Shown here piece after piece: positions 3,293-29,507 of a stretch of DNA of 64,000 nt. The notes under the pieces were generated by a model. It searched no databases, was not told the origin of the DNA, and saw nothing but the letters and a program-made list of their open reading frames with translations. Numbering within the stretch: position 1 is the first letter of the stretch; each line of letters begins with the position of its first letter. The translations under genes and the position numbers were made by a program. Source of the stretch: Muribaculaceae bacterium (lineage in GTDB: Bacteria > Bacteroidota > Bacteroidia > Bacteroidales > G3-4614); the NCBI GenBank assembly GCA_017546805.1, contig JAFYRT010000067.1:2457-66456 (forward strand), given 5' to 3'.

Positions 3293-3348
3293 AGCATAAT
3301 GATTATAATAACAATGCCGCTGTAACTCGCATGGATACAGAGGAATTG

Positions 3349-3356
3349 CAAAAATA
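3349..3356 (-). promoter_or_regulatory. Bacteroides-type -7 box TATTTTTG (minus strand) upstream of the adaptor/RND pair
   Basis: Plus-strand caaaaata is TATTTTTG on the minus strand, which matches TAnnTTTG. It lies 57 nt upstream of the ATG at 3292. Confidence 0.4.
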
Positions 3357-3404
3357 TAAAATTAGATTATTGTAAAAATATATAGAAAGTTAAAAAAAAG
3401 GAAG

Positions 3405-3818
3405 TTAAGCAAAAGGAGGGGCTCTTAACTGTGTCTCATTTGAGAGCAATATAGTCTTAACGGTGTAGTCGTGAGAAAATAATTTTTCCCCATTTATATA
3501 TGTAAAACTATATTTAAAGAGATCAATATCAAAATATTCTCCAAAAGAGATCTTTGTCTTTTCTTTGTTGTTGTCATCACACTTTGTTAGTATAGAATCG
3601 TTTCCTTTCAAAAAAGGACACTCCTCGCAGTTGTTGTTATTACAACAATTTCCCTCTTCTTCTGAATTAGAACAAGCATCTTTGTGACAGTCAACATGTG
3701 TGAGATTTAATCCAAAAACAAGTATGCCGTCATGATGATGATGAGGTACAATGGTTGTCGCAATCCATAATAAGGTTGCAAACCATAAGAATAATATTGT
3801 AACTCTCCTTCTCATCAT
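3405..3818 (-). CDS. Small membrane-anchored His4/Cys-rich protein, hypothetical. Candidate metal-binding accessory protein.
   Basis: 137-aa ORF. It has an N-terminal hydrophobic helix ending in IVPHHHHDG, followed by the Cys cluster CHKDACSNSEEEGNCCNNNNCEECPF. There is no CXXCH motif. It sits between ccsBA and the metal efflux genes. Confidence 0.55.
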   Translation of the reverse strand: MMRRRVTILFLWFATLLWIATTIVPHHHHDGILVFGLNLTHVDCHKDACSNSEEEGNCCNNNNCEECPFLKGNDSILTKCDDNNKEKTKISFGEYFDIDLFKYSFTYINGEKLFSHDYTVKTILLSNETQLRAPPFA

Positions 3819-3869
3819 AAAACAGTTTTTATATAGTTGGTATGCAAATTTAAAGCATAAATTTAAACT

Positions 3870-6221: not shown

Positions 6222-6235
6222 ATATAAAGATAAGG

Positions 6236-6805
6236 TTATTTTGATGGCTCTCTTTCTATTTTGCCTTTTTGTATGGGAGAAGATGGGGTAGGAGTAGAAG
6301 GAAAATCCTCTTGTTGAGGGTATTTTTTTACAGCAAACAGTTTCCTTCTTAGATTAGAACTTCCAGTATAAACCAATTTATGCCCAACTAAAGAAAGGTG
6401 GAATATTTTTATTGCATCATTCTCTTTTCGTCTGAATTTACAACTGAAAATGTTTTTATCTGAAGTCTTACCTAACAATCCAATAACATTTCCTGCAGGA
6501 ATTCTAATATGCCAATCTCCATAATAGATACGGTCTTTCAGCATTATGATTTGATAGTTGGCAACCTCATCTTTGTCAAAACACTCTTTAATCATAAAAA
6601 TAACACCATCATGGGCTTCCCATATACCCACGATGGTGTTAATATCTTTGTCCGAAAAATAAGAGTATGCACAATCAACATTAATAGAATCAATACGATT
6701 CCATAGGTTCTTATCTTGTGCAGTCAAGCTTGAGGGAAACACGAAGAACAGAGACAATGCAATAAGTGTCTTTAATTTAAAGTATGTTTCCCAATTGCTT
6801 TTCAT
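6236..6805 (-). CDS. Hypothetical secreted protein
   Basis: 189-aa ORF with a signal peptide (LFFVFPSSLTAQD). I recognise no motif. It is tightly packed between the DUF3078-like gene (5-nt gap) and ccsBA (14-nt gap). Confidence 0.5.
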   Translation of the reverse strand: MKSNWETYFKLKTLIALSLFFVFPSSLTAQDKNLWNRIDSINVDCAYSYFSDKDINTIVGIWEAHDGVIFMIKECFDKDEVANYQIIMLKDRIYYGDWHIRIPAGNVIGLLGKTSDKNIFSCKFRRKENDAIKIFHLSLVGHKLVYTGSSNLRRKLFAVKKYPQQEDFPSTPTPSSPIQKGKIEREPSK

Positions 6806-6810
6806 AACAA

Positions 6811-8298
6811 TTATTTGAATTTATAGTTAAATCCAAAACTTAACATCTCTTTGAATTGCAAGTATCTTTTATCTTTGTTAGCCATGATGCTATCGTCAAA
6901 TCTTGCATGTAGATAAATTTTGGTAGAGAAGAATCTGTTGAATACAAAGTTCAAACCTGTCTCAACATCAGCCAAAACCGATTTATAATCAGTAAAGTAG
7001 AATACTCTTGATGTCCAAGTAAGGTTAGGATAGAATTCCCACTTGAAAGTTCCTTCAAGAGAAGAACCGACTTGATTCTCGTATAATTTACCATCTTTGA
7101 TACCTGCTTTTATAGCCAATTCTTCGTCTAACGAGAATTTCAAGTTATATGAAAGAGGAGCAAGCATAACAGAGGTTTCGAATTTTTTGGGAGCAAGTTT
7201 CTTGTTGTAGCTCATACCGACTCCGACGTTAAGTTCTCCGGGAGAGAAGAATGCTGATGTTCTTGTTTCGCTGTTTGGTTTGTAGCTATTAAACAACTGA
7301 GTTTTGAATAAACCTGAAACAGTATAGTACCAATCTTTAACAGCCTTAATACCCAATTTAGAGTTTATTTGGAAAAGGTCATCGTTGATGCTCAATTTGT
7401 GGTATTCGTCAGAAGGAGTTGTGCTTACACCCACTTTCCATTGAGCCGACGTGGTAAACAATATATTGTTATGGTCGTACTCAACATTGTACAATTGATC
7501 ACTAACCAAGTTGAAGTTGCTTTCACCTCCTTGATACCAGTTTTTAGAGATATAAGCCTCAGTAACTTGAATAGAACTTGTGAAACTGTGTTTCCAAAGT
7601 TTTGGAGTAGGAGGAGCCTCTGTTGTGATAGAGGTAGAAGGAACATTTATTTTGTTTACGTCAACAAACTCTTTCGCCCCTTTTTTTGTCATTTTCTCAT
7701 TTTTAGGAGCTTTTGGCATAGTTTCGTTTGTGTAATCAACATCTTGAGGATTGTTGCTTAAAACATTGTCTTTGGCATTCTCAATGATAATTTCGCTATC
7801 GCTTTTTTCCATAGATTTAGCATATGAGTCATCCAAAGTCAAAGAGGTGTCTGTAGATGAAACTCTGTAATCAGGAACATTTACGGCTGTATCAATTTTC
7901 TTTTCGTTAAATACCAATGAAAGGAAATTGGGATTTATAGGGCTTACAGGGTTTTTAGAACTATCTTTTACGTCCATAATATACTCTGTGATTGAAGTGT
8001 ATATTATAGCTTTAACAGAATCGTTTACAGTAGAATCACCTTTAAAAATAGCAAGTTTTTCCAAGTACGATATGACATCGTTTTTTACAATTTCTTTAGC
8101 AATGGCAGTAGAATCAATAGCCACAATTTCTTCTGTTTTAACAGCAGTAGAGTCCATAGCTTCAACTTTTGTCTCAGAGACAATAGTGTCATTGATAAGC
8201 ATTGGAACCTCAGATGCAATGCTGTCGGTTGTTGTTTGTGCGTTTGCTGTACATAACAAGCAAGACAAACATAATAGTGTAATAGTAAAATTTTTCAT
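6811..8298 (-). CDS. Outer-membrane beta-barrel protein, DUF3078-like
   Basis: 495-aa ORF with a signal peptide (CLLCTANAQ). The segment WKHSFTSSIQVTEAYISKNWYQGGESNFNLVSD and the C-terminal SFGFNYKFK beta-signal resemble DUF3078 proteins as I remember them. Confidence 0.55.
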   Translation of the reverse strand: MKNFTITLLCLSCLLCTANAQTTTDSIASEVPMLINDTIVSETKVEAMDSTAVKTEEIVAIDSTAIAKEIVKNDVISYLEKLAIFKGDSTVNDSVKAIIYTSITEYIMDVKDSSKNPVSPINPNFLSLVFNEKKIDTAVNVPDYRVSSTDTSLTLDDSYAKSMEKSDSEIIIENAKDNVLSNNPQDVDYTNETMPKAPKNEKMTKKGAKEFVDVNKINVPSTSITTEAPPTPKLWKHSFTSSIQVTEAYISKNWYQGGESNFNLVSDQLYNVEYDHNNILFTTSAQWKVGVSTTPSDEYHKLSINDDLFQINSKLGIKAVKDWYYTVSGLFKTQLFNSYKPNSETRTSAFFSPGELNVGVGMSYNKKLAPKKFETSVMLAPLSYNLKFSLDEELAIKAGIKDGKLYENQVGSSLEGTFKWEFYPNLTWTSRVFYFTDYKSVLADVETGLNFVFNRFFSTKIYLHARFDDSIMANKDKRYLQFKEMLSFGFNYKFK

Positions 8299-8529
8299 AA
8301 AATAATTGTGTAAATTATTAATGGTTGATATTCTTTTTGTTTTTCAGTACCCACTGTTCTGAATTTGAATTACGTCTCATCTAAATAGAAATGGGGGTAC
8401 AACCGGATAAATTAATACAAAAATAGTTATTTATTGCTAATAAATGAAGATATTGCTTCAAAAAAAACAAAAGAAAAAAAAAGTAATATCTTTGGCTCTA
8501 TTCTGTGCAAAAAATATGATTTTTTTCTT

Positions 8530-15919: not shown

Positions 15920-17707
15920 ATGAATAGAATTTACGTTTTAACCATTATGCTATTATTGTTTGTTTTCAATGCAAATGCAGATTATTGCAATAGAACAACA
16001 AATAGTAATTCATCAAGGTATCTGAAAAGTGTATCGTTTCAAGGAGGATATTACGAATTCTCTCCACTTTCCATAGCCACATCGGGATATTCTGCGATAT
16101 ATTATAATAAAACCTCAAAGGTTTTTTATGCAAATGCAGGCTCTACCATAACTCCACAAATAGATTACGAAGGAGCATGGATGCAAGGATATGTATATAT
16201 TGATTATGATAACGATGGTACATTTAACACAACAAACGAGTTGGTGGCATATAGCGGTTATATGCAAAATGGAGTTTGGCGTAATAGTAAAGGAGAACAG
16301 ATAGCAGATGGAGGTGTTTGTCCTCCAAGTACAGTACCGTCTTTTATTATTCCCGAATCTATGCCATCAGGAGATTACAGGATGAGGGTTAAAGTCGATT
16401 GGGATTCTCCAGATCCTTGCGGAAGAACATCAGCGACAGGTAACTCAATGGAACAAAACGGAGGAGCAATAGTGGATTTGACTCTTCGTTTATCAGGAGT
16501 AACACACAACTATACCATAACAATAGATAATCAATATACTAAAGAGTATATCTTGGAATGGTCGGATGAATTTGAAGAGAGACAATTGGATGAGAGGGTA
16601 TGGAGTAAAATAGAACCATATGAAAGCGGAAATCCGGATTGGAGAAAAAATATTTCGACCTATGATGGCTGTTTCGATTTTCGTGATGGCAATATTGTTT
16701 TAAGGGGAATACGTAATCCGGGAGAGGCAGAGACTCTTGATACACGAACTTATCTATGTGGAGGAATAGAGTCGTGGGGTAAGAAGAGTTTTAAGGACGG
16801 ACGTGTAGAGATTAGAGCTAAAACAACATCAGCACGAGGAGCATGGCCTGCATTATGGATGATGCCGGAAGACCAATCGGCTGGATGGCCAGGATGTGGA
16901 GAAATAGATATTTTTGAACACCTCAATTACGATTCGTTTGTATATCAAACCCTACATAGTAATTATACCTATAATGTAAACAAAGAGAATCCATTGTCGC
17001 ATATAACAGCATCGGTCGATGTATCAGATTATAATGTATATGGAGTAGAGTTGGCTTCAGACACAATAAAACTCATGCTTAACGATAACGTTACAATGGC
17101 ATACCCAAATATAGGAGCAACAGATCAGTTTCCCTATTCAAAAGAGTTCTATTTAATACTCGATATGCAGTTGGGTGGCTCTTGGGTAGGCTCGGTAACG
17201 GGCGAAAATTTACCTGTGGAGATGTATCTTGATTGGGTGAGGTTCTATAAAAGATACGAAACAGGGGGTAAATTATTGGTTAAGACACTTGAAAACAAAG
17301 TAATATCGTCAGGAGAAACAGTTCCTGAAAATACAGTTTTGTTAATAACTGCAACACCTATAGAGGGATATGTAATAGAATCGCTTGTAGTAAATGGAGT
17401 AGATGTGACAGCCGAACATAATGTTTCAGGAAGTTATGCATATTGTCCAACCACATCAACAACAATTGCAGCGACATATAAACCAAAATCAGCTTCAGTG
17501 GAAACAGTCGAGCAAGAGGAGAGTGTAGTATATGTGGCTAATAATAGGATTGTCGTTGTTTCGTCTAAACCTGAGAATGTTGCAATTTACAATATGTCTG
17601 GAATGGTCGTAGACAAAAGAGTGGTGGAGAGTAGAATAGAGATTGAAAGAACTTCAGGCATCTACATCGTAGTAGTGGGAAGTAAAGCATATAAAGTAAA
17701 ACTGTAG
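15920..17707 (+). CDS. Glycoside hydrolase family 16 (beta-glucanase type). It has an N-terminal GEVED-like beta-sandwich domain, an InlB-B-repeat-like domain and a T9SS C-terminal domain.
   Basis: 595 aa. The GH16 catalytic motif GEIDIFEH (ExDxxE) is preceded by WPALWMMPED. The N-terminal domain ...YIDYDNDGTFNT...GDYRMRVKVDWDSPDPCG is shared with the sialidase. The C-terminus is VAIYNMSGMVV...GIYIVVVGSKAYKVKL. Confidence 0.85.
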   Translation: MNRIYVLTIMLLLFVFNANADYCNRTTNSNSSRYLKSVSFQGGYYEFSPLSIATSGYSAIYYNKTSKVFYANAGSTITPQIDYEGAWMQGYVYIDYDNDGTFNTTNELVAYSGYMQNGVWRNSKGEQIADGGVCPPSTVPSFIIPESMPSGDYRMRVKVDWDSPDPCGRTSATGNSMEQNGGAIVDLTLRLSGVTHNYTITIDNQYTKEYILEWSDEFEERQLDERVWSKIEPYESGNPDWRKNISTYDGCFDFRDGNIVLRGIRNPGEAETLDTRTYLCGGIESWGKKSFKDGRVEIRAKTTSARGAWPALWMMPEDQSAGWPGCGEIDIFEHLNYDSFVYQTLHSNYTYNVNKENPLSHITASVDVSDYNVYGVELASDTIKLMLNDNVTMAYPNIGATDQFPYSKEFYLILDMQLGGSWVGSVTGENLPVEMYLDWVRFYKRYETGGKLLVKTLENKVISSGETVPENTVLLITATPIEGYVIESLVVNGVDVTAEHNVSGSYAYCPTTSTTIAATYKPKSASVETVEQEESVVYVANNRIVVVSSKPENVAIYNMSGMVVDKRVVESRIEIERTSGIYIVVVGSKAYKVKL

Positions 17708-18226: not shown

Positions 18227-18874
18227 TTATTCGGTTTTTACATTAATAATCAATTTTTCTAAAAATCTAATTTGGTCTGCAAAGTAAATATTTTTTTCTG
18301 GATTTTTCAAACTTATGCCCTTAATAATTTCCAAAGCGCGCTCATATTTACGCTGTTTGATATATATATGAGCCAAACTCTCAGTGAAAAAAGACTCTTC
18401 GATAGGTTTTGAATACTCCTCTTCCTCTAAATTGTCAATATCTTCATCAGAACTATTTGTCTCCTCTTCGCTCTTTTTGAAATCACCGTTTTCTACAGCG
18501 TCTAAAAATGAGTTTATTGATTCTATTTGTTTGTCCGAACTCTCCTCAATAACATCCTCGCTCAATGTGAAATAATCAGAATTGTATCCTTCGCTCATAA
18601 TAATCTCATCGAGAGAAGATTCTGCAACTCCGCTCGATTCTAAAAAATTATCGATAGTAGAGAATTTGTCTTGTTCCTTTATCTTTTGCTCTGTATGAAT
18701 CTCAGTATTGGTTTTCTCCGTTTCCGATTTTGTGTTGTGCATAAACGCTGCCAACTTTTTTAATTCTTTTGATAGTACAACAATATTGTCTCCCGGCTTA
18801 TTCATAGCCGAAAGTAATGTGTTGCGTTTATATCCGTCAGAATTCTTCTGTTGTTTGTTTTTATCGGAACTCAT
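18227..18874 (-). CDS. Acidic protein with a C-terminal TPR-like helix pair, hypothetical
   Basis: 215 aa with a highly acidic middle part. The C-terminus reads ESLAHIYIKQRKYERALEIIKGISLKNPEKNIYFADQIRFLEKLI. It lies between lptE and secG with gaps of 7 and 3 nt. Confidence 0.55.
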   Translation of the reverse strand: MSSDKNKQQKNSDGYKRNTLLSAMNKPGDNIVVLSKELKKLAAFMHNTKSETEKTNTEIHTEQKIKEQDKFSTIDNFLESSGVAESSLDEIIMSEGYNSDYFTLSEDVIEESSDKQIESINSFLDAVENGDFKKSEEETNSSDEDIDNLEEEEYSKPIEESFFTESLAHIYIKQRKYERALEIIKGISLKNPEKNIYFADQIRFLEKLIINVKTE

Positions 18875-19394: not shown

Positions 19395-20611
19395 TAATCC
19401 AAGTTATACTCTTTAATTTTTCTGTATAGTGTTCTCTCCGAAATTTTCAACTCTTCAGCGCATTTTTTTCGTTTGCCGTTGTTTCGCTCAAGAGACTTTT
19501 TTATCATCTCCTTTTCTGCATCCTCGAGAGATATGGCACTATCTTCGATATTCTCAATATTGATAGTCTCTATATTATCGTATCTGCTGTGTTCTTTAGT
19601 CTCTATATATGGAGTATGTATGATATCTTCGGCAATATTCTCTTCATAATTATTTTGTTGTAATCCATGAAGAATATTTCTGTCTGTCAATTCAAGTTTC
19701 GATTTTATCTCATTTATCTCCTTGCGCATATCAAGGATGATTTTATAGAGGATCTCTCGCTCTCCATTGATAAAAGAGTTGCTTTCAGTTTTGTTTATGG
19801 CAGGCAGATTTGGTCCGTCATAAACAGGAAGGTATGATTCCAATACTTCAGCGCTAATCTCTCTCGATGTCTCCAATATCGATATTTGTTCCGTAATATT
19901 CCTTAGCTGTCTTATATTTCCAGGCCAACGATAAGAAAGCAGTAGTTTCTTGGCTTCCGGTGAAAGAGTTATGGCCGGCATCTTGTACTCCTCTGCAAAG
20001 TCAGAGCTAAACTTTCTGAATAATAGGAATATGTCATCAAGTCTGTTTCTGAGAGGGGGAAGTTCAATGTGGATAGTATTCAATCTGTAAAATAAATCCT
20101 CTCTGAATTTGCCCTCCTGAATAGCTTTGGTCATATCCATATTGGTTGCCGCAACAATTCTTACATCTGTTTTTTGAACGGTAGAAGAACCAACCTTTAA
20201 AAATTCTCCGTTTTCAAGAACCCTTAAAAGTCTGGCTTGAGTTGTCAGGGGAAGTTCTCCAACCTCATCAAGGAAAATGGTTCCACCATTTCCCTCCTCA
20301 AAATAACCCTTTCTATCTGTTAATGCACCAGTAAAAGCTCCCTTCTCATGTCCGAATAGTTCAGAGTCGATAGTTCCTTCAGGTATGGCTCCGCAGTTTA
20401 CAGCAATATACTTTTTGTGTTTTCTTGCGCTATATTCGTGGATGATTTTAGGAAAAAACTCTTTACCGGTACCGCTTTCTCCAGTAATTAATACCGATAT
20501 ATCGAATCTTGCAACCTGTATTGCGCGGCTGATAGCTCTGATTAAAGAGGGAGTATTTCCAATAATATTAAACCTCTGTTTTATGTTGTTAATATCGGGA
20601 TTGTTAATCAT
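19394..20611 (-). CDS. Sigma-54-dependent transcriptional activator (bacterial enhancer-binding protein) with no N-terminal sensory or receiver domain
   Basis: 405 aa. It has Walker A GESGTGKE, the sigma-54 contact loop GAFTGA, DEVGEL, and a C-terminal Fis-type HTH (CAEELKISERTLYRKIKEY). The AAA+ domain starts about 15 aa from the N-terminus. Confidence 0.9.
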   Translation of the reverse strand: MINNPDINNIKQRFNIIGNTPSLIRAISRAIQVARFDISVLITGESGTGKEFFPKIIHEYSARKHKKYIAVNCGAIPEGTIDSELFGHEKGAFTGALTDRKGYFEEGNGGTIFLDEVGELPLTTQARLLRVLENGEFLKVGSSTVQKTDVRIVAATNMDMTKAIQEGKFREDLFYRLNTIHIELPPLRNRLDDIFLLFRKFSSDFAEEYKMPAITLSPEAKKLLLSYRWPGNIRQLRNITEQISILETSREISAEVLESYLPVYDGPNLPAINKTESNSFINGEREILYKIILDMRKEINEIKSKLELTDRNILHGLQQNNYEENIAEDIIHTPYIETKEHSRYDNIETINIENIEDSAISLEDAEKEMIKKSLERNNGKRKKCAEELKISERTLYRKIKEYNLD

Positions 20612-20641
20612 ATAAAATGTCTACATATATCTATCAAATTA

Positions 20642-20649
20642 CAAAATTA
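20642..20649 (-). promoter_or_regulatory. -7 box TAATTTTG (minus strand) for the activator-lptE-secG operon
   Basis: Plus-strand caaaatta. It lies 31 nt upstream of the ATG at 20611. Confidence 0.4.
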
Positions 20650-20790
20650 GTAATAAATAATCAATGCTAAAAATAAAAACTATTAAAAAGTACAATCTTG
20701 TTGTTTTATAGTTGTTTCCTATCTCCAAATACAAAGGAAATAGGCTCGTAAATATTTGTTAAAATATTTCTATAATAATAAAAAAAATAG

Positions 20791-20798
20791 TATCTTTG
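20791..20798 (+). promoter_or_regulatory. -7 box TATCTTTG for the DUF3575-like operon
   Basis: Exact TAnnTTTG match, 67 nt upstream of the ATG at 20865. Confidence 0.45.
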
Positions 20799-20864
20799 CG
20801 AGCGAAATTTTGTTTACTTTTAGTAATAAGAGTAAGTGTTTGTAAATTAAGATAATATAAAAAT

Positions 20865-21452
20865 ATGAAAATATATTCGAAAGAGTTTTTTTCTTCATTG
20901 GTAGCTCTTGCAAAGGGTAAGAGAGGGGTGCTTTTTATTGTGCTTCTCTTTTTGATGCCATTGTCGGTGCACTCTCAAAAAATAGCAGTAAAAACAAATC
21001 TATTGGAGTGGGCAACAATATCTCCTAATATCTCTGCCGAGTTTGTTGTATCTCCAACAATGTCGTTAGATTTATCTGCATCATTCAATAAGTGGGTGCC
21101 TTTTGCCAATGCAAAATATGACCATCTTAAAATTCAACCTGAGTTGAGATATTGGTTTCAAAGACCTATGGCTCAGCATTTTTTAGGATTCTCGCTTTTG
21201 TATTTCAACTATGATATGATGGCAAAAGGAGTGTGTCATGAAGGACAAGCCATAGGAGGAGGTTTTTCATACGGATATGATTTTGTATTAAGCAAAAGGT
21301 GGAATTTGGAGTTGACAGCAGGAGTAGGAGCTGTTTATCGTTTCGAAAAAAAATATGATGAGGGAACAAAACCTCCATATAAAAACAATGGAAATACTTG
21401 GGGTATAGCGCCAATTAATTTAGGAGTAACACTCTCTTATGTTATATTCTAA
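20865..21452 (+). CDS. Small outer-membrane beta-barrel protein, DUF3575-like
   Basis: 195 aa with a signal peptide. The sequences KIAVKTNLLEWATISPNISAEFVVSPTMSLDLSASFNKW...LKIQPELRYWF and the C-terminal LGVTLSYVIF match my memory of DUF3575. Confidence 0.65.
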   Translation: MKIYSKEFFSSLVALAKGKRGVLFIVLLFLMPLSVHSQKIAVKTNLLEWATISPNISAEFVVSPTMSLDLSASFNKWVPFANAKYDHLKIQPELRYWFQRPMAQHFLGFSLLYFNYDMMAKGVCHEGQAIGGGFSYGYDFVLSKRWNLELTAGVGAVYRFEKKYDEGTKPPYKNNGNTWGIAPINLGVTLSYVIF

Positions 21453-21467
21453 CAAAAACAAAAACAG

Positions 21468-23468
21468 ATGAATAAAATAACAAAAATATTTCTCTTGATA
21501 GCAACATTGATTGTGATGTTGCCAATTGAACTTTATGCGCAGAATATACGTGTGACAGGAGTTGTTCGTGGAAACAATGGAGAACGAATACCCGGAGTTT
21601 CTATAACAGATTTAGGACGTCAAAGAGTATTGGGAATAACCGATGAAGACGGAAAATATTCTGTCGTTTTAGCTCCTAATGCAACAATCTCGTACACCTG
21701 TATGGGTTACAATGAGAAGAAGGAGAAGGTAAAAGGTAGAGTTTCAATTGATGTTGAGATGGAATCAACAGCAAAAGAGATAGACGAGATTACAGTAACA
21801 GCAAGTTTGATTGGAAATGTTGTGTTTGAGCCATCTGAAATTGAGATTGTAGGAAACTATTTTCACCTGCGCACAAGATTTAAAGTGCCCAAAGAGCTAA
21901 TGGCATTAGACCACAGATTGGTCGTACAACCAACAATATACAATGTAACACGTCGTAAAACAATGTTCCTACGTCCTGTCGTATCTGATGGAGCAGAGTA
22001 TCTTCGTACTCAAGAGAGAATGTATGGCTTTGATATAACAAAAGACCCATTGTCTCCATATATTCAAAAGAGCCAAATGTCTCGTCAAGGCGAGATAATT
22101 GCATACCACGACTCTGTATATATTGAGAACAACCGTGATGACTATCGTTCAGATGTTTTTTTGTCGGTAGAAGATTATCACAAAATAATTAAGGTAGACA
22201 CAATGGTTATTGCAAAAGGAACAGTAAACCCATTGAGATTCTTTGATTATCAAATCGATCCAAGAGATTTGACAGATTCAATATATATACCAAAACCTGA
22301 GTTGGCATTGCGTAACGACAAAGGAGAGGTGCATCTGACTTATCTTCCTGGTAAAGCGACAATCGATGAGAAAGATTCTCACAACCTATCGGAATTGAGA
22401 AAGTTGGAAGAGAGAATAGCATTCCTTGAACAAGACCCTGATGCAAAATTGCAGTCAATGTCAATTTTCGGAGTCTCTTCGCCAGAAGGAAATTACAGAA
22501 AGAACGTGGAGTTGGCTGATGCTCGAATGAGAGCGGCAAGAGATAAAATATTGTCATATATAAGCCCTGCAACAAAAGAGTTCTTGAAAGTTGAATCTCA
22601 ATCAAAGGTAGAAAATTGGTTGCCCGTAGTAGAGATGATGAAACAAGACTCTTTACACAAAAAAGCAGCAGAACTACAAGAGATAATAGATAAGTATCCA
22701 AACAGTTTGAATTCACAATTCGATAAAATCAGGAAACTCTCATATTATCGCTCTGTCATCGTTCCTTATCTTTCTAAATTAAGAAGGGTGGAGTATGATT
22801 TCGGATATTCAATGTATCGTATATTGAAAGACGAAGAGATATTGGAGTTGTATGAACAAAATTACACACAACTATCTCGTTACGACTTTTATAGAATGTT
22901 CCAAATGGCAAAAGATGATGCTGAGAGAGAAAAACTATATTCACAAGCATTGTCGGTATATCCTAAATTTATGCTGGCTGCAAACAATTTGGCAACCATA
23001 TACATCCGTCAAGGTCGTTCAGATATTGAATTGTTGAAGCCATTTGTAAAAGAGGGGGCGCCTGAAGAGGTGTTGACCAATCAAGTTATAGCGGCTTTGG
23101 ATAAGTGGCAATATCAAACTGCGGACTCTGTGGCGTCATTGATGCCTTCATCTGCCACAACAGAGTACATCAGATCAATAACTCGTATATTAAACGGTAA
23201 TTATACCGAGGCTCTATCGCAATTTGCAGAGGAGGGAGGAATTAATGAGGTATTGATATTGCTTGCGATGAAACGTAACGAAGAGGCATGGGAGAAAGCT
23301 CAAGACCTACCCGATGATTCGGCAAGAGTATTGTATGTTAAAGCAATAATAACAAACCGATTGGATATGGTTGTTGAGGCCATTGATTATATAGAAACAG
23401 CATTAGAGATGGATCCCTCATTGCGAGAGATAGCAGAGATTGATGCCGATGTAAAAGATTTGTTGTAG
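21468..23468 (+). CDS. Secreted multidomain protein of unknown function. Domains in order: CarboxypepD_reg-like, DUF3868-like, OmpA-like remnant, C-terminal TPR.
   Basis: 666 aa with a signal peptide. The CarboxypepD_reg-like part is IRVTGVVRGNNGERIPGVSITD...DGKYSV. The DUF3868-like part is NYFHLRTRFKVPKELMALDHRLVVQPTIYN...FLRPVV. The OmpA-type motif is IFGVSSPEGNYRKNVELADARMRAARDKILSYI. The C-terminal third contains TPR-like helices. Confidence 0.55.
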   Translation: MNKITKIFLLIATLIVMLPIELYAQNIRVTGVVRGNNGERIPGVSITDLGRQRVLGITDEDGKYSVVLAPNATISYTCMGYNEKKEKVKGRVSIDVEMESTAKEIDEITVTASLIGNVVFEPSEIEIVGNYFHLRTRFKVPKELMALDHRLVVQPTIYNVTRRKTMFLRPVVSDGAEYLRTQERMYGFDITKDPLSPYIQKSQMSRQGEIIAYHDSVYIENNRDDYRSDVFLSVEDYHKIIKVDTMVIAKGTVNPLRFFDYQIDPRDLTDSIYIPKPELALRNDKGEVHLTYLPGKATIDEKDSHNLSELRKLEERIAFLEQDPDAKLQSMSIFGVSSPEGNYRKNVELADARMRAARDKILSYISPATKEFLKVESQSKVENWLPVVEMMKQDSLHKKAAELQEIIDKYPNSLNSQFDKIRKLSYYRSVIVPYLSKLRRVEYDFGYSMYRILKDEEILELYEQNYTQLSRYDFYRMFQMAKDDAEREKLYSQALSVYPKFMLAANNLATIYIRQGRSDIELLKPFVKEGAPEEVLTNQVIAALDKWQYQTADSVASLMPSSATTEYIRSITRILNGNYTEALSQFAEEGGINEVLILLAMKRNEEAWEKAQDLPDDSARVLYVKAIITNRLDMVVEAIDYIETALEMDPSLREIAEIDADVKDLL

Positions 23469-23469
23469 A

Positions 23470-26367
23470 ATGAGAAAGATATATACATATAAAAGAATAG
23501 CAAGTTTGCGTTATGTGCTAATATTGGTGGTGGCGATGATTATCTCCACTTCCGAGTCGTTTGCACAGATGAACGCCTTGGATTATCGTTTGCAAAAACG
23601 ACCAAAGTCAGAAAAATTTGACAACCCCAAATTCATGGACAACACATTCCTAAGTGTTGCAACAGGTCCTCAATTTAACTTTTTGGCAGAGAAGGAGGGG
23701 TTTGAGGTAGGACCTACAATTCGTTATTATTTCGGAAAATGGTTTACACCTGTGATAGGAGCCAGATTCGGATTAGACATGTCGTTCTTATATGACAGAG
23801 GTTGGGAAACATTCGGCCTCTTCGGATTTAACTTGGATTATATGGCAAATATCACGGCTTTTGCACGAGGATATAACCCTGATCGTCTATTTGAGCTATA
23901 CGGAATTGCCGGAGTAACATACAAGCGCTCTTTCCAATACGGAAATGGTAAACATGTGTATGGCGGAGTGGCAGGATTCCAAGGTTCCTTTACAATATCG
24001 CCATTGGTGGATCTTTACATTGAACCCAAAGTCTCATTGGTGAATGATTCATACAATGATTCAAGAAAGGAGCAAAGACGTAAATTCGATTTAATCCCGG
24101 AGGTGACAATAGGAGCAACCTATAAGATGGTACCTGACGCGAAACGCAAAACAACTGAATTCACCAATACATCATTCAAGGATAATCTATTCTTTACTAC
24201 CGCATTTGGAGTACAACGAGTTACATCTCGTTTAATGGATTTAAAAGATAATAACTACGCTGGATTCAGCGGAATGTTAGGATTTGGAGGTTGGTTTAAT
24301 GGGGTTCATGGTATAAGATTGTCTGCCTTGGCAGGATTTGCTCCTTACATATCATCAGAATCGGGAGTATCGTCATCATCAACATTGATAAATGGAGTAG
24401 GGCGAGCAGATTATCTTGTAAATTACAGTAACCTTTTTGGTGGATACAACGAAAGAAGACTATTCAAACTTATAGGAATATTCGGACTTGAGTTGGCAGG
24501 AACAAAATACGAAGATACAAGTTGGAATTTGGCAGGAGGAATAGGATTAGGATTGCAAGGTGCGTTCCGTGTAAGCCCTACGGTTGATTTATTCATGGAG
24601 CCTCGAATGTCATTCTATAACAAAACATATACTCATGGAATAAATAACAGATTCGATAGTGTTGCTTCAATGTTATTTGGTGTAACATATCACAGTAGTG
24701 ACAATGAGTATAGAAAGGATAATGATGTGTTTGCTCACAAATCTAAAACAGACCACATGTTTGTTACTGCATCGGCAGGTATGGGAGCAACATATTCAAG
24801 GTATGATCAAAATCTTTCAGGGGGAGAATCATTGGCTTATCGATTTAATATCGGTATAGGAAAATGGTTTACAAAAAATTCAGGATTACAAATAACAGGA
24901 GGAGCCCTATTATTTGGAACTCGAAACCCAAATACAGATGCTAATGAGCCATATAGAGCAAGAACATTAACACTGGGTGCGGACTACTTGTTGAATATGA
25001 CAAATGTAGTTGCAGGGTACAGAGAGGACAGATTGTTTGAGGTGATTGCAGGAGCAGGAGCATCAGCTATATATCACCATTCAACATTCTATCCTGCATT
25101 ACAAACATTCCTAAGAGGAAACTTCAATTTGAAAAATAATTGGAGTGTATATGTTGAGCCACATGCAATATGGTCACCAACAAGACGTGTCTTTACAAAT
25201 ACAATAAGTACACGCAAGGCTGTGGTTATGACTGCCAATGTCGGAACATCATACACAATGAGAGGATATGATGCCGCATCATATCAAGAGTTCTCGGCAA
25301 CAGAGGGAAAACGACTATTTTTCTCATTGGGAGCAGGAGTTTCAGGAAATCTTGATAACAGATTGTTCTCCGACACTAAATTCAGAGTTGGACCCATTGG
25401 CTGTTTATCTGTAGGTTCATGGGCATCTCCTGTATTGGGATGGCGAGTGAATGTTATGGCTGAGAAACTTAATGGAACAACAAACTACGAGGATATATCT
25501 CATGCAGGACTTGAGGCAGACGTATTATTCAACTTTATGAATGCCGCATTAGGATATAAACCGTACCGTCTGTTCGATTTAAATCTAACAGCAGGAGTGC
25601 ATGCCGGATTTGCCGTGGTTAACCATAGTATGCGTTTCATCCCCGGTGTAAAAGGAAGTTTGCAAGGAGTCTTTAACATAACACCAAAGGTGGGAGTATA
25701 TGTTGAACCTCAATTGGCTGTATATTTGAACAAATTCGATGGCGCAAACAAACAAAAAACAAATGTGGCTTTGTCGGCAGGATTGATATATACAATGAAC
25801 AAGGCTGAAAGAGGTAATTCCATAGCCTCATCTGATATGGAGAATAAAAACATAATATCTCTTTATGGAGGATTGGGACTATACGGAAATACATTAATGT
25901 CAAAATATGAAGGTAAATTCTCTGATAAGATGACATATTCCGGAGGTTTGGCATATGGACGTTGGATTACTCCTGTTCATGGATTAAGATTGAACGCAGA
26001 GTATAACCATATTCAAAAACCATATCAATATATAGGAAAGAAAATGGGAGTTGCCGCAGCAAGGGTTGATTATATGTTAAGCCTTACAAACCTAATTACA
26101 GGATACGAGCCACAATCAAGATTCGGAGCAGTTATCTTTGCAGGAGCAGGAGTTGCAATGCCTGTAGTAGGAGAGGATGTTAAGGAGATAAAACCAACAT
26201 ATACAGTTGCGTTCGGATTAAAAGCGAATGTTCGTATAACAGACAACATAGATTTCTATCTTGAGCCTCGTGGAGTATTCTATGGAGATAAGATAGATAA
26301 TTATAAATCAAATGCAGGATTCGATGCAACAGGTATGTTGTTGGCAGGATTTGATTTTAAATTTTAG
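23470..26367 (+). CDS. 965-aa outer-membrane protein built of five tandem OmpA-like/8-strand-type beta-barrel modules, function unknown
   Basis: It has a signal peptide (SESFAQ). Five modules of about 160-170 aa share the motifs G(K/G/S/R)W(F/I/A)xPxxGxR, (A/L)DY(L/M)xNx(T/S)N...GYxxxRLF, and VxP(T/L/K)VD(L/F)(Y/F)xEP. The C-terminus GFDFKF is a BAM-type beta-signal. It starts 1 nt after the stop of the upstream gene. Confidence 0.7.
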   Translation: MRKIYTYKRIASLRYVLILVVAMIISTSESFAQMNALDYRLQKRPKSEKFDNPKFMDNTFLSVATGPQFNFLAEKEGFEVGPTIRYYFGKWFTPVIGARFGLDMSFLYDRGWETFGLFGFNLDYMANITAFARGYNPDRLFELYGIAGVTYKRSFQYGNGKHVYGGVAGFQGSFTISPLVDLYIEPKVSLVNDSYNDSRKEQRRKFDLIPEVTIGATYKMVPDAKRKTTEFTNTSFKDNLFFTTAFGVQRVTSRLMDLKDNNYAGFSGMLGFGGWFNGVHGIRLSALAGFAPYISSESGVSSSSTLINGVGRADYLVNYSNLFGGYNERRLFKLIGIFGLELAGTKYEDTSWNLAGGIGLGLQGAFRVSPTVDLFMEPRMSFYNKTYTHGINNRFDSVASMLFGVTYHSSDNEYRKDNDVFAHKSKTDHMFVTASAGMGATYSRYDQNLSGGESLAYRFNIGIGKWFTKNSGLQITGGALLFGTRNPNTDANEPYRARTLTLGADYLLNMTNVVAGYREDRLFEVIAGAGASAIYHHSTFYPALQTFLRGNFNLKNNWSVYVEPHAIWSPTRRVFTNTISTRKAVVMTANVGTSYTMRGYDAASYQEFSATEGKRLFFSLGAGVSGNLDNRLFSDTKFRVGPIGCLSVGSWASPVLGWRVNVMAEKLNGTTNYEDISHAGLEADVLFNFMNAALGYKPYRLFDLNLTAGVHAGFAVVNHSMRFIPGVKGSLQGVFNITPKVGVYVEPQLAVYLNKFDGANKQKTNVALSAGLIYTMNKAERGNSIASSDMENKNIISLYGGLGLYGNTLMSKYEGKFSDKMTYSGGLAYGRWITPVHGLRLNAEYNHIQKPYQYIGKKMGVAAARVDYMLSLTNLITGYEPQSRFGAVIFAGAGVAMPVVGEDVKEIKPTYTVAFGLKANVRITDNIDFYLEPRGVFYGDKIDNYKSNAGFDATGMLLAGFDFKF
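23644..26364 (+). repeat. Five protein-level tandem repeats inside the 965-aa ORF
   Basis: Approximate module limits are aa 59-220, 239-408, 430-597, 616-776 and 795-965, which correspond to nt 23644-24129, 24184-24693, 24757-25260, 25315-25797 and 25852-26364. The modules were aligned by eye on three conserved blocks. Confidence 0.75.
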
Positions 26368-26390
26368 ATAAAAACAATAATCATTTAAAG

Positions 26391-26421
26391 GACCTCAGAG
26401 ATACTCTTTGAGGTCTTTTTT
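26391..26421 (+). terminator. Intrinsic terminator closing the three-gene operon
   Basis: gacctcagag-atact-ctttgaggtc forms a 10-bp stem with one G-U pair, followed by TTTTTT. Confidence 0.7.
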
Positions 26422-26519
26422 GTTATAAAACCATAAATATCTCTGTCTTTTACGTATAAGTCTCTGTAGTAACATGGTAAAAATAGGAATTAACTATGTG
26501 AATTTAAAAAAATAATTAT

Positions 26520-26527
26520 TAACTTCG
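26520..26527 (+). promoter_or_regulatory. -7-like box TAACTTCG upstream of rfbB
   Basis: A TAnnTTCG variant, 23 nt upstream of the ATG at 26550. Confidence 0.3.
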
Positions 26528-26549
26528 CAGTAATTATATTATATCCAAT

Positions 26550-27749
26550 ATGAAAAAATATCTTGTAACAGGAGCTGCCGGGTTTATAGGCGCAAATTTT
26601 GTCAAATATATGTTGTCAAAGTATGATGATATATTTATAGTAATACTCGATAAATTAACTTACGCCGGAAATTTAGGAACAATCAAGAACGAGATAGAAG
26701 ATAAACGAGTAGAATTCGTATTAGGAGATATATGTGACAAAGAAGCTGTATCAGAAATTTTTGCAAAATACGATATAGACTATGTTGTAAACTTTGCGGC
26801 AGAATCGCATGTCGATCGTAGCATCACCAATCCTCAACTATTTTTGGAGACCAATATTCTTGGAACGCAAAATATGTTGGAGTGTGCAAAACAATCTTGG
26901 ATGACAGGAAAAGATGCAAGTGGATATCCAACATATAAGCAAGGTAAAAAGTACCTTCAAGTTTCAACAGACGAGGTGTATGGTTCATTGACAAAAGATT
27001 ATGAAGAGCCTGTAGAATTGGAAATTGCCGATGAAGAAGTAAAAGTGGTTGTAAAAGGCAGAGATAATCTGAAAACATACGGCGACAGCTATTTTACAGA
27101 AGATACTCCATTAGACCCTCGTTCTCCATATTCAGCCTCAAAGACAGGAGCAGACTTGATAGTAAGGGCATATAGCGAAACTTATAAAATGCCAATAAAT
27201 ATTACTCGTTGCTCAAATAATTATGGACCATATCACTTCCCGGAAAAGCTTATACCATTAATCATTAAGAATATACTTGAAGGTAAAAAACTGCCTGTGT
27301 ATGGTAAGGGAGAAAATGTTCGTGATTGGCTATATGTAGAGGATCATGCCAAAGCCATAGATATGGTGTTGAATAAAGGACGTGAGGGAGAAGTATATAA
27401 CATTGGCGGATTTAACGAAGAGACAAATATAAATATCGTAAAATTGATAATAGATACCATCACGCGTATAATGAATGAAGAACCATCGTATCGCTCGGTA
27501 TTAAAAGTGCCTGTGGAGATGATAAATTACGATTTGATAACATACGTTGGAGACCGATTGGGACACGATATGCGTTACGCAATTGATCCATCAAAAACAG
27601 CAAAAGAGTTGGGATGGTATCCCGAGACACCGTTTACCGAGGGTATTGAAAAAACAATCCGTTGGAATTTGGAGAATCAACAATGGGTAGAAGAGGTTGC
27701 GAGCGGTGATTATCAAAAATATTACGAATCGATGTATAAAAACCGATAG
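26550..27749 (+). CDS. rfbB: dTDP-glucose 4,6-dehydratase
   Basis: 399 aa. It has the Rossmann motif [12 protein letters not shown], the SDR triad region STDEVYG and [10 protein letters not shown], and a long insertion (about aa 135-185) relative to enteric RmlB. Confidence 0.92.
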
Positions 27750-27772
27750 TATTACTATCAAAGGAATATAAA

Positions 27773-28660
27773 ATGATGAAAGGAATTGTATTGGCAGGAG
27801 GGTCGGGAACACGACTATATCCAATAACAAAAGGAGTGTCAAAGCAGATGCTCCCAATATACGATAAACCGATGATATACTATCCTATATCGGTATTGAT
27901 GTTGGCAGGAATTCGTGAAATATTGATTATATCAACTCCCTCTGACCTGCCAGGCTTTAAACGTCTATTAGGCGATGGCTCGCAAATAGGTGTAAAATTC
28001 AGTTATGCAGAGCAACCATCTCCCGATGGATTGGCACAAGCCTTTATCATAGGAGAGGAGTTTATAGGTGACGATGCCGCATGTATGGTATTGGGCGACA
28101 ATATCTTCTATGGACAAGGTTTTTCAGCAATGTTGAAAAATGCAGTGGCAAAGGCAGAAAATGGAGAAGCAACAATATTCGGATATTGGGTAAATGATCC
28201 AGAGCGTTATGGAGTTGCAACATTTGATGAAGAATTTAATGTAACCTCAATAATTGAGAAACCCGAAAATCCCAAATCAAATTATGCAGTAGTTGGTCTA
28301 TATTTCTATCCCAACAGAGTGGTTGATATAGCCAAAAGCATAAAACCTTCAGCACGAGGAGAGTTGGAGATAACAACAGTAAATAATGTATTCAAGGAGG
28401 AGCAAGGATTAAAAATATCACTATTGGGTCGTGGTTTTGCATGGTTGGATACAGGAACACATGAATCTTTGTTTGATGCATCAAACTTCATAGGAACAAT
28501 AGAAAAACGACAGGGACTCAAGGTGGCATGTCTTGAGGAGATAGCATTCCGTAACAGATGGATAACAGCAAAAGACCTATTGGCGATAGCTGAACCTATG
28601 AAGAAAAATCAGTATGGTCAATATTTGATAAATTTAGTAGAGGAGTACTCCAATAGATAG
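27773..28660 (+). CDS. rfbA: Glucose-1-phosphate thymidylyltransferase
   Basis: 295 aa. It reads [37 protein letters not shown]... The start could be the second Met at 27776. Confidence 0.95.
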
Positions 28661-28669
28661 GATAAAGTT

Positions 28670-29083
28670 ATGGCACTCGATAAAGTAAAATTGGTGGAAT
28701 TACCCAAGGTTGTCGATTTCAGAGGAAATCTCTCGGTGATAGAGGAGATGAATCAGATACCTTTCGAGATAAAGAGAGTATATTGGATATATGATGTTCC
28801 CGGAGGAGAGAAACGATATGGGCATGCATTTAAAGAGCAGCACGAATTTATAGTTGCCCTTTCGGGATGTTTCGATGTCATACTCAATGATGGAAACGAG
28901 GAACGTGTGATTACTCTCAACAGATCATATAACGGAGTATATGTACCTAATAGAATATGGCGAAGAATAGAGAACTTCTCAACTAACTCTGTTGCATTGG
29001 TTTTGTCGTCAACACATTATTCTCAAGCAGACTATATTGATGACTATAATGAATATCTTCAATATTTAAAAGACAATGAATAA
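28670..29083 (+). CDS. FdtA/QdtA (WxcM-like) sugar 3,4-ketoisomerase cupin, divergent copy
   Basis: 137 aa. It reads DFRGNLSVIEE...PFEIKRVYWIYDVPGGEKRYGHAFKE. The canonical RGxHAHK motif reads RYGHAFK here. Confidence 0.7.
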   Translation: MALDKVKLVELPKVVDFRGNLSVIEEMNQIPFEIKRVYWIYDVPGGEKRYGHAFKEQHEFIVALSGCFDVILNDGNEERVITLNRSYNGVYVPNRIWRRIENFSTNSVALVLSSTHYSQADYIDDYNEYLQYLKDNE

Positions 29084-29507
29084 AAAGCTATATAACATAT
29101 CTGATTGCAGGTTAATAGAATTGGGAAAATATTACCGCCCAAACGGAAACCTTACCGCTGTTGAAGGAGCAAACAATGAGATGGGCTTTGATATAAAAAG
29201 AGTCTATTATATTTATGATGTGCCTGCAACAAGCGATAGAGGAGGACATGCACATAAAGAACTTATGCAGTTAATAGTTGCAGTAAGCGGAAGTTTTGAT
29301 GTTTTGGTTGATGATGGCAAGAAGATAAAGACAGTAACGTTGAATCGCCCTAATATGGGCTTATTGCTACCTCCGGGCATTTGGCGAGAGATAAAAAACT
29401 TCTCATCAGGAGCGGTAACATTGGTATTGGCATCAGCACCATACGATGAGGCGGATTATGTTCGTACTTATGCCAAATTCATGGATTATAGAGAATCTCT
29501 TAAGTAG
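29076..29507 (+). CDS. FdtA/QdtA (WxcM-like) dTDP-4-dehydro-6-deoxyglucose 3,4-ketoisomerase, canonical copy
   Basis: 143 aa. It reads GFDIKRVYYIYDVPATSDRGGHAHKELMQLIVAVSGSFDVLVDDG. It overlaps the upstream paralog by 8 nt (ATGAATAA). Confidence 0.78.
   Translation: MNKKLYNISDCRLIELGKYYRPNGNLTAVEGANNEMGFDIKRVYYIYDVPATSDRGGHAHKELMQLIVAVSGSFDVLVDDGKKIKTVTLNRPNMGLLLPPGIWREIKNFSSGAVTLVLASAPYDEADYVRTYAKFMDYRESLK

Follow-up and report, generated by a model that had tools for sequence, protein, structure and literature searches.

We describe here a three-gene operon from a Muribaculaceae bacterium, located in a window of 64,000 nucleotides (the whole stretch of DNA that was analysed; contig JAFYRT010000067.1 of assembly GCA_017546805.1), whose products, termed P1, P2 and P3, are predicted to be a DUF3575 outer-membrane beta-barrel, a periplasmic adaptor and a chain of five small barrels, respectively. 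Comparison across genomes confirmed that the predicted three-gene operon is real and widely conserved in gut Bacteroidales, with the P1, P2 and P3 genes displaying obligate co-occurrence. The components, namely DUF3575, a DUF3868-type adaptor, the N-terminal extension (NTE) of SusC and a poly-8 multibarrel, are all known families, and it is their conserved combination that is new: we found no description in the literature of the P1-P2-P3 combination, of an NTE with a Ton-box handle on a non-transporter, or of a function. This agrees with a preliminary description of this DNA, made from the letters of the sequence, which knew of no described function for the combination; the profile searches that it had proposed as a check led to known families for the proteins and to no known joint role. 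We tentatively propose that the operon is related to the DUF3575/DUF3868 module but stands alone, and that its P2 would fasten small barrels, gathered in a raft, to the peptidoglycan and perhaps also engage TonB. The genes, as given in the open reading frame (ORF) listing, and the predicted signals that flank them are:

20791 to 20798, plus strand: Bacteroidetes-type -7 promoter box TATCTTTG (TAnnTTTG), predicted, 74 nt 5' of the P1 start
20865 to 21452, plus strand: P1 gene (195 aa)
21468 to 23468, plus strand: P2 gene (666 aa)
23470 to 26367, plus strand: P3 gene (965 aa)
26387 to 26419, plus strand: hairpin resembling an intrinsic terminator (15-bp stem, 3-nt loop and T-rich tail), 20 nt 3' of the P3 stop

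A scan of a genome collection returned 129 confirmed P3 relatives, and 78 loci were retrieved. With synteny scored by hidden Markov models (HMMs) for P1, P2 and P3, the order P1-P2-P3 was recovered in 79 of the 83 sources that hold all three (median gaps, 18 and 5 nt) and the order P2-P3-P1 in three. The co-occurrence of homologs of the 965-aa protein with DUF3575/DUF3868-type pairs, which the preliminary description had put forward for checking, is thereby borne out. Hosts of the triad include Candidatus Caccoplasma, Coprobacter, Barnesiella, Bacteroides, Phocaeicola, Prevotella, Alloprevotella, Leyella and Muribaculaceae. The window DNA is itself 92.8% identical over 14.2 kb to a Candidatus Caccoplasma metagenome-assembled genome (MAG). 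Cultured carriers are Coprobacter fastidiosus, C. secundus, Phocaeicola plebeius, P. coprophilus, Leyella stercorea and Prevotella sp. P5-108; as the module occurs in cultured gut species, experiments on it are feasible. The 115 immediate neighbors of the triads are unrelated housekeeping genes, the most recurrent being a sigma-54 activator (10), HisRS (7) and an rfbB-like gene (6). Since these flanking genes vary, the module is self-contained, as had been proposed, and the sigma54-lptE-secG neighborhood is lineage-specific: in the window the operon does diverge from genes for a sigma-54 activator, LptE, a 215-aa protein without a Pfam match and SecG, an arrangement noted earlier, but this adjacency is confined to the Caccoplasma/Coprobacter lineage. 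Furthermore, gene fusions connect two of the three products. In one source a protein (P0026) combines six P3-type barrels with a genuine C-terminal DUF3575 domain (E=4e-25), and a DUF3575 domain (E=1.8e-27) is present on one of 50 diverse P3 family members that were scanned; we regard these P1-P3 fusions as evidence that points to a physical link between P1 and P3.

Two observations on individual triads may be added. In the complete genome of Bacteroides finegoldii JCM 13345 the triad (positions 3346-8336 of locus L079) appears fragmented, with P2 split into 159 and 402 aa and P3 into 334, 98 and 120 aa, reflecting either pseudogenization in this type strain or sequence errors. Four triad-bearing sources (L064, L085, P0217 and P0230) are labeled Anaerovoracaceae, Christensenella, Firmicutes or Clostridium, for which mis-binning of Bacteroidales contigs in MAGs is the most likely explanation.

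The three ORFs are co-directional and separated by spacers of 15 nt (P1/P2) and 1 nt (P2/P3), exactly reproducing the earlier coordinates. The promoter-like box reported at 20791 is likewise present: TATCTTTG is the sole TAnnTTTG within 20600-20870, and the window as a whole has about 0.66 such motifs per kb per strand. As 60 of 82 orthologous loci keep TAnnTTTG within 260 nt 5' of P1 (about 0.17 expected), often in the longer form TAnnTTTGC, the assignment is backed by comparison and not by the pattern alone, and TATCTTTG is supported as the predicted promoter of P1-P2-P3. The strong terminator described previously is indeed a 15-bp hairpin with a T run, but it lies at 26387-26419 rather than at 26391-26421; its stem is the longest among the terminator-like sites listed for 19500-27500. 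Signal peptides, read by eye straight from the sequence, are apparent on all three products as the preliminary description had claimed: each N-terminus is a basic-hydrophobic signal sequence ending in A or S followed by Q, and Cys is absent from all three. PADLOC defense models yielded no match to P1, P2 or P3, and for this reason a phage-defense reading of the operon was dropped.

P1 is by its sequence a full-length DUF3575 (PF12099) protein and thus a predicted outer-membrane beta-barrel, with a Pfam match covering positions 2-177 of the 177 in the profile (E=1.1e-52; 178.4 bits versus a cutoff of 21.1), so that its earlier designation as DUF3575-like can be retained. It has an N-terminal signal peptide and a C-terminal Phe, and is 29% identical (E=8e-26) to a DUF3575 protein from a true type V pilus operon. 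A sequence search of the PDB recovered no solved relative of P1. DUF3575 proteins have been detected in outer-membrane vesicles of Porphyromonas gingivalis (PMC12937337).

P2 is predicted to be a secreted periplasmic adaptor: it has a signal peptide, no Cys lipobox, and an architecture of several soluble domains. Its homolog in the cultured Coprobacter fastidiosus is 57% identical. The AlphaFold2 (AF2) model, built from a 55-sequence alignment (predicted local distance difference test, pLDDT, 87.4; predicted TM-score, pTM, 0.61), comprises in order a signal helix, a beta-sandwich (27-98), a disordered linker (102-114), an all-beta region (125-291), a beta-alpha-beta-alpha-beta unit (280-381), helices (385-438) and a tetratricopeptide repeat (TPR) superhelix (455-658). 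A Pfam scan returned CarbopepD_reg_2 at 4e-8, weak TPR matches, and OmpA (PF00691) at E=0.056, with 14.2 bits against a cutoff of 27.2. The features assigned within P2 are:

21546 to 21761, plus strand: P2 residues 27-98, beta-sandwich of the SusC-type NTE (CarbopepD_reg_2; Pfam 4e-8, TIGR04056, Foldseek)
21777 to 21803, plus strand: P2 residues 104-112, EIDEITVTA, TonB-box-like segment in the disordered linker, directly 3' of the NTE and pairing with the SusC Ton box
21840 to 22340, plus strand: P2 residues 125-291, all-beta sandwich-like domain in place of the DUF3868 N-terminal domain (AF2 strands, pLDDT 85-93)
22305 to 22610, plus strand: P2 residues 280-381, OmpA-C-like alpha/beta domain (Foldseek fold match; AF2 pLDDT 85-90)
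22620 to 23441, plus strand: P2 residues 385-658, helical region and TPR superhelix (AF2 helices, pLDDT 90-97; weak Pfam TPR matches)

The N-terminus of P2 matches positions 2-85 of the SusC/RagA model TIGR04056 (E=3e-14), recovers the SusC chains 8aa4, 5t3r, 9hfj and 6ytc from the PDB by profile (E=5e-14), and in Foldseek superimposes on 9hfj with a TMt of 0.88 and a root-mean-square deviation of 1.2 A. The PDB alignments also take in the Ton box of SusC, LDEVVVV; its partner in P2 is 104-EIDEITVTA-112, within a stretch (102-114) of AF2 pLDDT below 50. A pattern E[VIA]xV occurs at this linker position in 50 of 77 distinct P2 orthologs versus 0.5% of other 21-aa windows, and it comes nearest to the SusC form in distant Phocaeicola versions (DEVLVVG, KEVVVTG). 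We accordingly speak of a TonB-box-like segment and of residues 104-112 as a candidate for TonB contact. Bt1763 shows the same succession of an NTE and then a Ton box (81-VDEVVV-86), and both elements are required for function (PMC7782687). P2 thus resembles the SusC/RagA transporters in having a signal peptide, an NTE with an immunoglobulin (Ig)-like fold and then a Ton-box-like strand in a flexible linker; unlike them it has no plug, 22-stranded barrel or SusD partner, there being no Plug or TonB_dep_Rec match in Pfam. Because the linker leads, in the AF2 model, into a beta-sandwich, an OmpA-like fold and TPRs in place of a 22-stranded barrel, P2 is not a transporter.

Of the domains that follow, the all-beta region 125-291 found only poor Foldseek matches, to Ig-like domains of Gram-positive pilins, and the TPR region matched 8chy and 9qhc at a TMt of about 0.5. 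Residues 280-381 adopt the beta-alpha-beta-alpha-beta fold of OmpA-type domains by both AF2 and Foldseek, the latter giving 4rha, 3td5, 3td3, 5u1h, 5nhx and 1r1m with probability 1.0 and TMt 0.61-0.73, along with Pal (4g4w) and PorE (6top, TMt 0.48-0.50), for an overall range of 0.48-0.73. The OmpA-type motif pointed out in the preliminary description, SSPEGNYRKNVELADARMRAARD, is located at residues 337-359, and the P2 alignment is invariant at S338-P339-x-G341...N346..L349...R353, with Glu340 nearby. The binding motif of Escherichia coli OmpA is GYTDxxGxxxxNxxLSxRRA. Hand alignment with it shows that P2 retains the Asn and the Arg, which it shares with the peptidoglycan-anchoring proteins OmpA, Pal, RmpM and PorE together with the OmpA-C-like fold, whereas the ligand-contacting Asp of OmpA-type domains is replaced by Ser. 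As Asn and Arg are kept but Asp has become Ser338, binding of P2 to the cell wall is plausible and is here termed putative. In OmpA, barrel and anchor are parts of one chain, whereas in the P1-P2-P3 operon they would be supplied by separate genes. PorE, a T9SS lipoprotein with TPR, beta-propeller, carboxypeptidase-regulatory-like (CRD) and OmpA-C-like domains in that order, works with an outer-membrane barrel; P2 differs from it in lacking the lipobox and the beta-propeller and in its order CRD...OmpA-like...TPR, and only the OmpA-like domain matches 6top.

The relationship of P2 to DUF3868 (PF12984) is one of partial homology. No Pfam match to PF12984 was obtained in P2 at E<=1, and the earlier description of P2 as DUF3868-like therefore holds over the OmpA-like, helical and TPR part and not for the Pfam domain itself. 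The evidence comes from P0256, a protein of 468 aa whose residues 6-91 form a genuine PF12984 domain and which was reached by search from a divergent Muribaculaceae P2: hhalign aligns P2 281-601 with P0256 173-444 at 99.1% probability (E=1.2e-18; 269 columns), which excludes residues 6-91 of the latter. The two share the motif ASPEG...N..LA..R and a C-terminal TPR region, the 385-658 region of P2 being homologous to the C-terminal part of P0256. As an ordinary DUF3868 protein already has the OmpA-like/TPR part, this part is not a gain of P2, contrary to the preliminary description, and is ancestral to DUF3868-type proteins. Classical DUF3868 proteins are, on the other hand, devoid of the NTE, as that description had recognized in considering the carboxypeptidase-regulatory-like domain a gain; the additions in P2 are the NTE with its Ton-box-like handle, along with a beta domain, either different or strongly diverged, in the position of PF12984.

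The gene for P0256 lies in an operon (L088) with the order DUF3575-DUF3868-FimA/Fimbrillin_C-Mfa2, in agreement with the earlier statement that a DUF3575/DUF3868 pair heads type V pilus operons, and it follows its DUF3575 gene directly, as P2 follows P1. The two kinds of operon hence have in common a DUF3575 barrel gene first and an adaptor gene second; they diverge at the next position, where pilin, anchor and tip genes follow in the pilus operons and a poly-8 barrel gene follows here. Between promoter and terminator there are no genes for FimA/Mfa1-type stalk pilins or Mfa2/FimB-type anchors, pilin families are absent from the 25 most frequent Pfam families (each with at least two neighbors) among the 115 immediate neighbors, a list outside which lie 113 rarer families, and the annotated contexts that were consulted contain no pilin genes; the absence of pilins noted in the preliminary description extends, therefore, to the recurrent neighbors. 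A locus of intermediate type between pilus operon and triad (L090, 281-14461) encodes Mfa_like_1, DUF3575, an 888-aa P2-like protein without an NTE, a 702-aa protein of no known type and a 556-aa TPR protein. In Bacteroides thetaiotaomicron a DUF3868/DUF3575 pair is reported in the literature beside Mfa1-type genes (BT4227-4236), and in the BT1062-68 fimbrial operon BT1066 and BT1064 (with BT1065) have been equated with P. gingivalis PGN0178 and PGN0179, i.e. fimX and pgmA (PMC2954217). On the basis of such literature cross-references, as distinct from a comparison of the sequences, the DUF3575/DUF3868 pair of the pilus operons probably corresponds to FimX/PgmA. PgmA, a 60-kDa protein, occurs in the outer-membrane fraction of P. 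gingivalis (PMC3436787); despite this, the DUF3868 type of protein to which it would belong is not a barrel.

P3 produced no match in Pfam. It consists of a signal peptide, a conserved N-terminal NALDYRLQKRP (with L41, Q42 and K43 invariant), five predicted barrels and a C-terminal Phe. When the alignment of 17 orthologs was cut into five blocks and these were compared profile against profile with hhalign, the five repeats, of about 170 residues each, proved mutually homologous (99.8-100% probability; E 1e-29 to 1e-40). The AF2 model (17 sequences; mean pLDDT 72, pTM 0.41) has five times eight strands, with a short helix after strand 4 of each repeat and linkers of 16-21 residues containing short helices between them. 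The repeats, each with eight strands in the AF2 model (assigned by DSSP), are:

23629 to 24147, plus strand: barrel 1, P3 residues 54-226 (repeat HMM E=2.6e-57)
24172 to 24714, plus strand: barrel 2, P3 residues 235-415 (repeat HMM E=7.4e-54)
24748 to 25278, plus strand: barrel 3, P3 residues 427-603 (repeat HMM E=2.6e-43)
25306 to 25809, plus strand: barrel 4, P3 residues 613-780 (repeat HMM E=3.2e-49)
25840 to 26364, plus strand: barrel 5, P3 residues 791-965 (repeat HMM E=6.1e-46), with the C-terminus ...GFDFKF

From 1.84 billion representatives the repeat profile recovered 2186 clusters (50% identity) at E<=1e-3; with the stricter limit of E<=1e-30 the number was 247. Chains of this family contain 2 to 15 repeats. 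Among 85 distinct P3 orthologs, three repeats were counted in 6 proteins, four in 19, five in 40, six in 11, seven in 5 and eight in 2, the entries from L079 and L087 being truncated fragments with one repeat each. As diverse members of the family reach OMP_b-brl (PF13505; 12 of 50) and PF13568 (3 of 50), transitive homology places the P3 unit in the OmpA-type eight-stranded barrel superfamily. Membership in PorT/SprT, indicated by a lone weak NCBIfam match on one repeat (E=1e-4), was not accepted. The possibility that the P3 barrels are amplified copies of P1 was also ruled out, because hhalign gave a probability below 12% for each repeat against the P1/DUF3575 family. PDB sequence searches with the repeat profile and with full-length P3 found no solved relative, and Foldseek with the whole model against the PDB gave only generic barrel matches at a TM of about 0.1, which do not discriminate between one barrel and five.

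The 965-aa poly-barrel of the preliminary description is thus upheld as five eight-strand repeats, but the class to which it belongs had been described: Solan, Pereira, Lupas, Kolodny and Ben-Tal (PNAS 2021; PMC8346858) predicted computationally 289 poly-8 multibarrels with 2-11 barrels, restricted to Bacteroidetes and mainly from Prevotella and Bacteroides. Like P3, these have tandem eight-stranded barrels in one chain, linkers of about 20 residues and a copy number that changes by amplification and deletion. From its repeats and strand count P3 appears to belong to this class, as judged against the published description rather than the authors' family lists. The 2021 work gives no operon context, partners or function. 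In our results the P3 family extends to 15 barrels, and it is linked with P2 and a DUF3575 barrel. Three proteins (P0266, P0286 and P0339, of 2889, 2559 and 2427 aa) have 15, 13 and 12 barrels per chain, respectively, above the 2021 maximum of 11.

Several features favor five independent eight-stranded barrels in P3 over one larger barrel. The linkers are long and contain short helices, the copy number varies by whole units (3-8 in orthologs, 2-15 in the family), each repeat finishes on G-x-x-Y/F in a beta-signal-like last strand, and the AF2 confidence is good per unit and low for the whole (pTM 0.41). In addition, the contact maps published for multibarrel families, with an 8-8 family as the example, favor separate barrels (PMC8346858). 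Barrels can also be spread over several genes, since loci of Phocaeicola, Mediterranea and others carry extra one- or two-barrel genes. In four such loci (L082, 1568-7647; L083, 1807-7779; L086, 2845-8748; L039, 1845-8745) a three-barrel P3 is accompanied by separate genes, which encode one P3-type barrel of about 203 aa, another DUF3575 protein of about 237 aa or a two-barrel ORF.

With the N-terminus of P3 placed in the periplasm, an assumption on which all our inside and outside labels depend, the most informative columns over 415 repeat instances lie in two periplasmic turns, turn 1 (GKWFTPxxGxRL) and the helix-containing turn 2 (DYLxNxxxxxxGYxxxRxF), and the outward loops are variable and 2-13 residues long. 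The conservation of these turns and of NALDYRLQKRP therefore favors a periplasmic partner and disfavors a loop-mediated adhesin.

What the analysis shows is which genes are present, how their domains are arranged, that their synteny is conserved, that fusions occur and where conservation is concentrated. From this we infer complex formation, peptidoglycan binding, TonB engagement and a tethering role, which could be combined as follows. P1 and the P3 barrels would be inserted into the outer membrane by the beta-barrel assembly machinery (BAM) and form a raft of small barrels with short variable surface loops and conserved periplasmic turns. P2, exported to the periplasm, would dock on the barrel turns via its TPR and/or beta-sandwich domains, hold peptidoglycan with its OmpA-like domain and leave the NTE and Ton-box handle exposed for grip by a TonB-family protein. 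The net role might then be that of a multivalent load-bearing staple from the outer membrane to the cell wall, possibly coupled to the inner membrane, and the operon would represent a paralog, standing by itself, of the module found ahead of type V pilus genes, DUF3575/DUF3868 (probably FimX/PgmA). A number of points weigh against this proposal. Contact between P2 and the barrels is deduced from synteny and conservation; the topology of P3 is assumed; and tethering is one among several roles compatible with the architecture. In a mean-field direct-coupling analysis (DCA) of 1010 consecutive repeat pairs, aimed at whether strand 8 pairs with strand 1 of its own unit or of the following one, the filtered effective number of sequences (Meff) was 297 and even hairpin neighbors rose barely above background, so that the analysis was underpowered. 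On the side of P2, replacement of the diaminopimelate-contacting Asp by an invariant Ser may mean that peptidoglycan is bound differently or not at all, the 820-aa versions from Alloprevotella have a degenerate Ton-box-like motif, and the survey of immediate neighbors found no tonB or exbBD gene linked to the operon.

The alternative that fares best, which we consider possible if doubtful, is that P1 and P2 are a biogenesis pair, with P2 a TPR chaperone or targeting factor, P1 a co-insertion partner and P3 the client, the same pair handling lipoprotein pilins in the pilus operons. TPR domains are common in assembly factors of outer-membrane proteins, such as BamD and BepA, and the DUF3575 and DUF3868-like pair precedes differing "cargo", pilins in the P0256 operon and poly-8 barrels here. 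Furthermore, an usher role has been proposed for PgmA (PMC7482747), and the insertion of multibarrels is flagged as an open problem in the 2021 study (PMC8346858). However, neither fimX nor pgmA is needed to export and polymerize FimA when fimA is expressed from a plasmid (PMC3436787), the OmpA-like wall-binding fold and the NTE/Ton box would be superfluous for a chaperone, and a permanent P1-P3 fusion suits a stable partner better than a transient helper.

An energized version of the tether, which we regard as unlikely, would make P2 the first non-transporter with a SusC-type NTE and Ton box, with an inner-membrane TonB/ExbBD motor taking hold of it and passing proton-motive force through the peptidoglycan-bound adaptor to the barrel raft, so that the system would act as an energized tether or actuator, a functional counterpart of Tol-Pal or of the outer-membrane Glt platform in Myxococcus. 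Were it correct, it would also reveal the role of the DUF3575/DUF3868 (FimX/PgmA) genes in type V pilus operons. Somewhat less likely still is an adhesin or receptor array, in which the adjacent small barrels of P3 would provide avidity for repetitive glycans or host surfaces and P1 and P2 would be accessory. Avidity in adhesion was suggested for the poly-8 proteins of gut Bacteroides and Prevotella in the 2021 paper (PMC8346858), the copy number differs between lineages as in many adhesins, and the system is related to pilus operons; against these stand the short, poorly conserved predicted extracellular loops, the placement of the conserved motifs in the periplasmic turns and the lack of any lectin-like or Ig-like passenger domain.

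We also consider improbable a TonB-dependent signaling or gating device, in which TonB would pull on the Ton box of P2 and so relay a signal from the envelope or open a path, with a regulatory output. The conserved NTE and Ton-box-like module and the divergent sigma-54 activator of Caccoplasma and Coprobacter could be accommodated by it, as could the fall in fimA transcription upon loss of fimX or pgmA (cited in PMC3436787). Yet a barrel of eight strands offers no lumen that could be gated, the neighbor survey shows neither an anti-sigma factor nor an STN domain or regulator accompanying the module across genera, no sigma-54 -24/-12 element was visible when the region 5' of P1 was read by eye, and the NTE is missing from classical DUF3868 proteins. 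Finally, a single giant P3 barrel of about 40 strands that acts as a large outer-membrane pore or translocon and is plugged or gated from the periplasm by P2 is very improbable: barrels on very short linkers can merge into a larger one (Arnold et al., as cited in PMC8346858) and the DCA signal is too weak to tell against such a merger, but the linkers of P3, its 2-15 units per chain, the single-barrel genes of some loci, the contrast between per-unit confidence and pTM, and the published contact maps all speak for separate barrels.

The operon bears on wider questions. It shows one large multibarrel family (more than 2000 clusters at 50% identity) to travel with two specific partners, which leads to testable hypotheses. 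As multi-barrel single-chain outer-membrane proteins have so far only been predicted, it offers a lead on their role and assembly. It also ties the poly-8 family to the DUF3575/DUF3868 genes heading type V pilus operons in Bacteroides and Porphyromonas, and an NTE with a Ton-box handle on a non-transporter bears on the purpose of the NTE domain in SusC.

Some features of the surrounding DNA deserve mention. The 215-aa product encoded between lptE and secG (18227-18874, minus strand) is acidic, and a Pfam-less ORF of 229-253 aa occupies the same slot in three other loci (L001, L007 and L008); the arrangement suggests that the genes for the sigma-54 activator, LptE, this protein and SecG constitute a conserved operon. 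A secreted 595-aa protein with a GEVED domain and a GH16 glycoside hydrolase domain is encoded at 15920-17707 (plus strand). On the other side, immediately 3' of the terminator, genes for a dehydratase (rfbB-like), a nucleotidyltransferase (rfbA-like) and a tandem pair of overlapping FdtA/WxcM-like paralogs (28670-29083 and 29076-29507) occupy 26550-29507 on the plus strand, in what looks like a dTDP-sugar pathway cluster.

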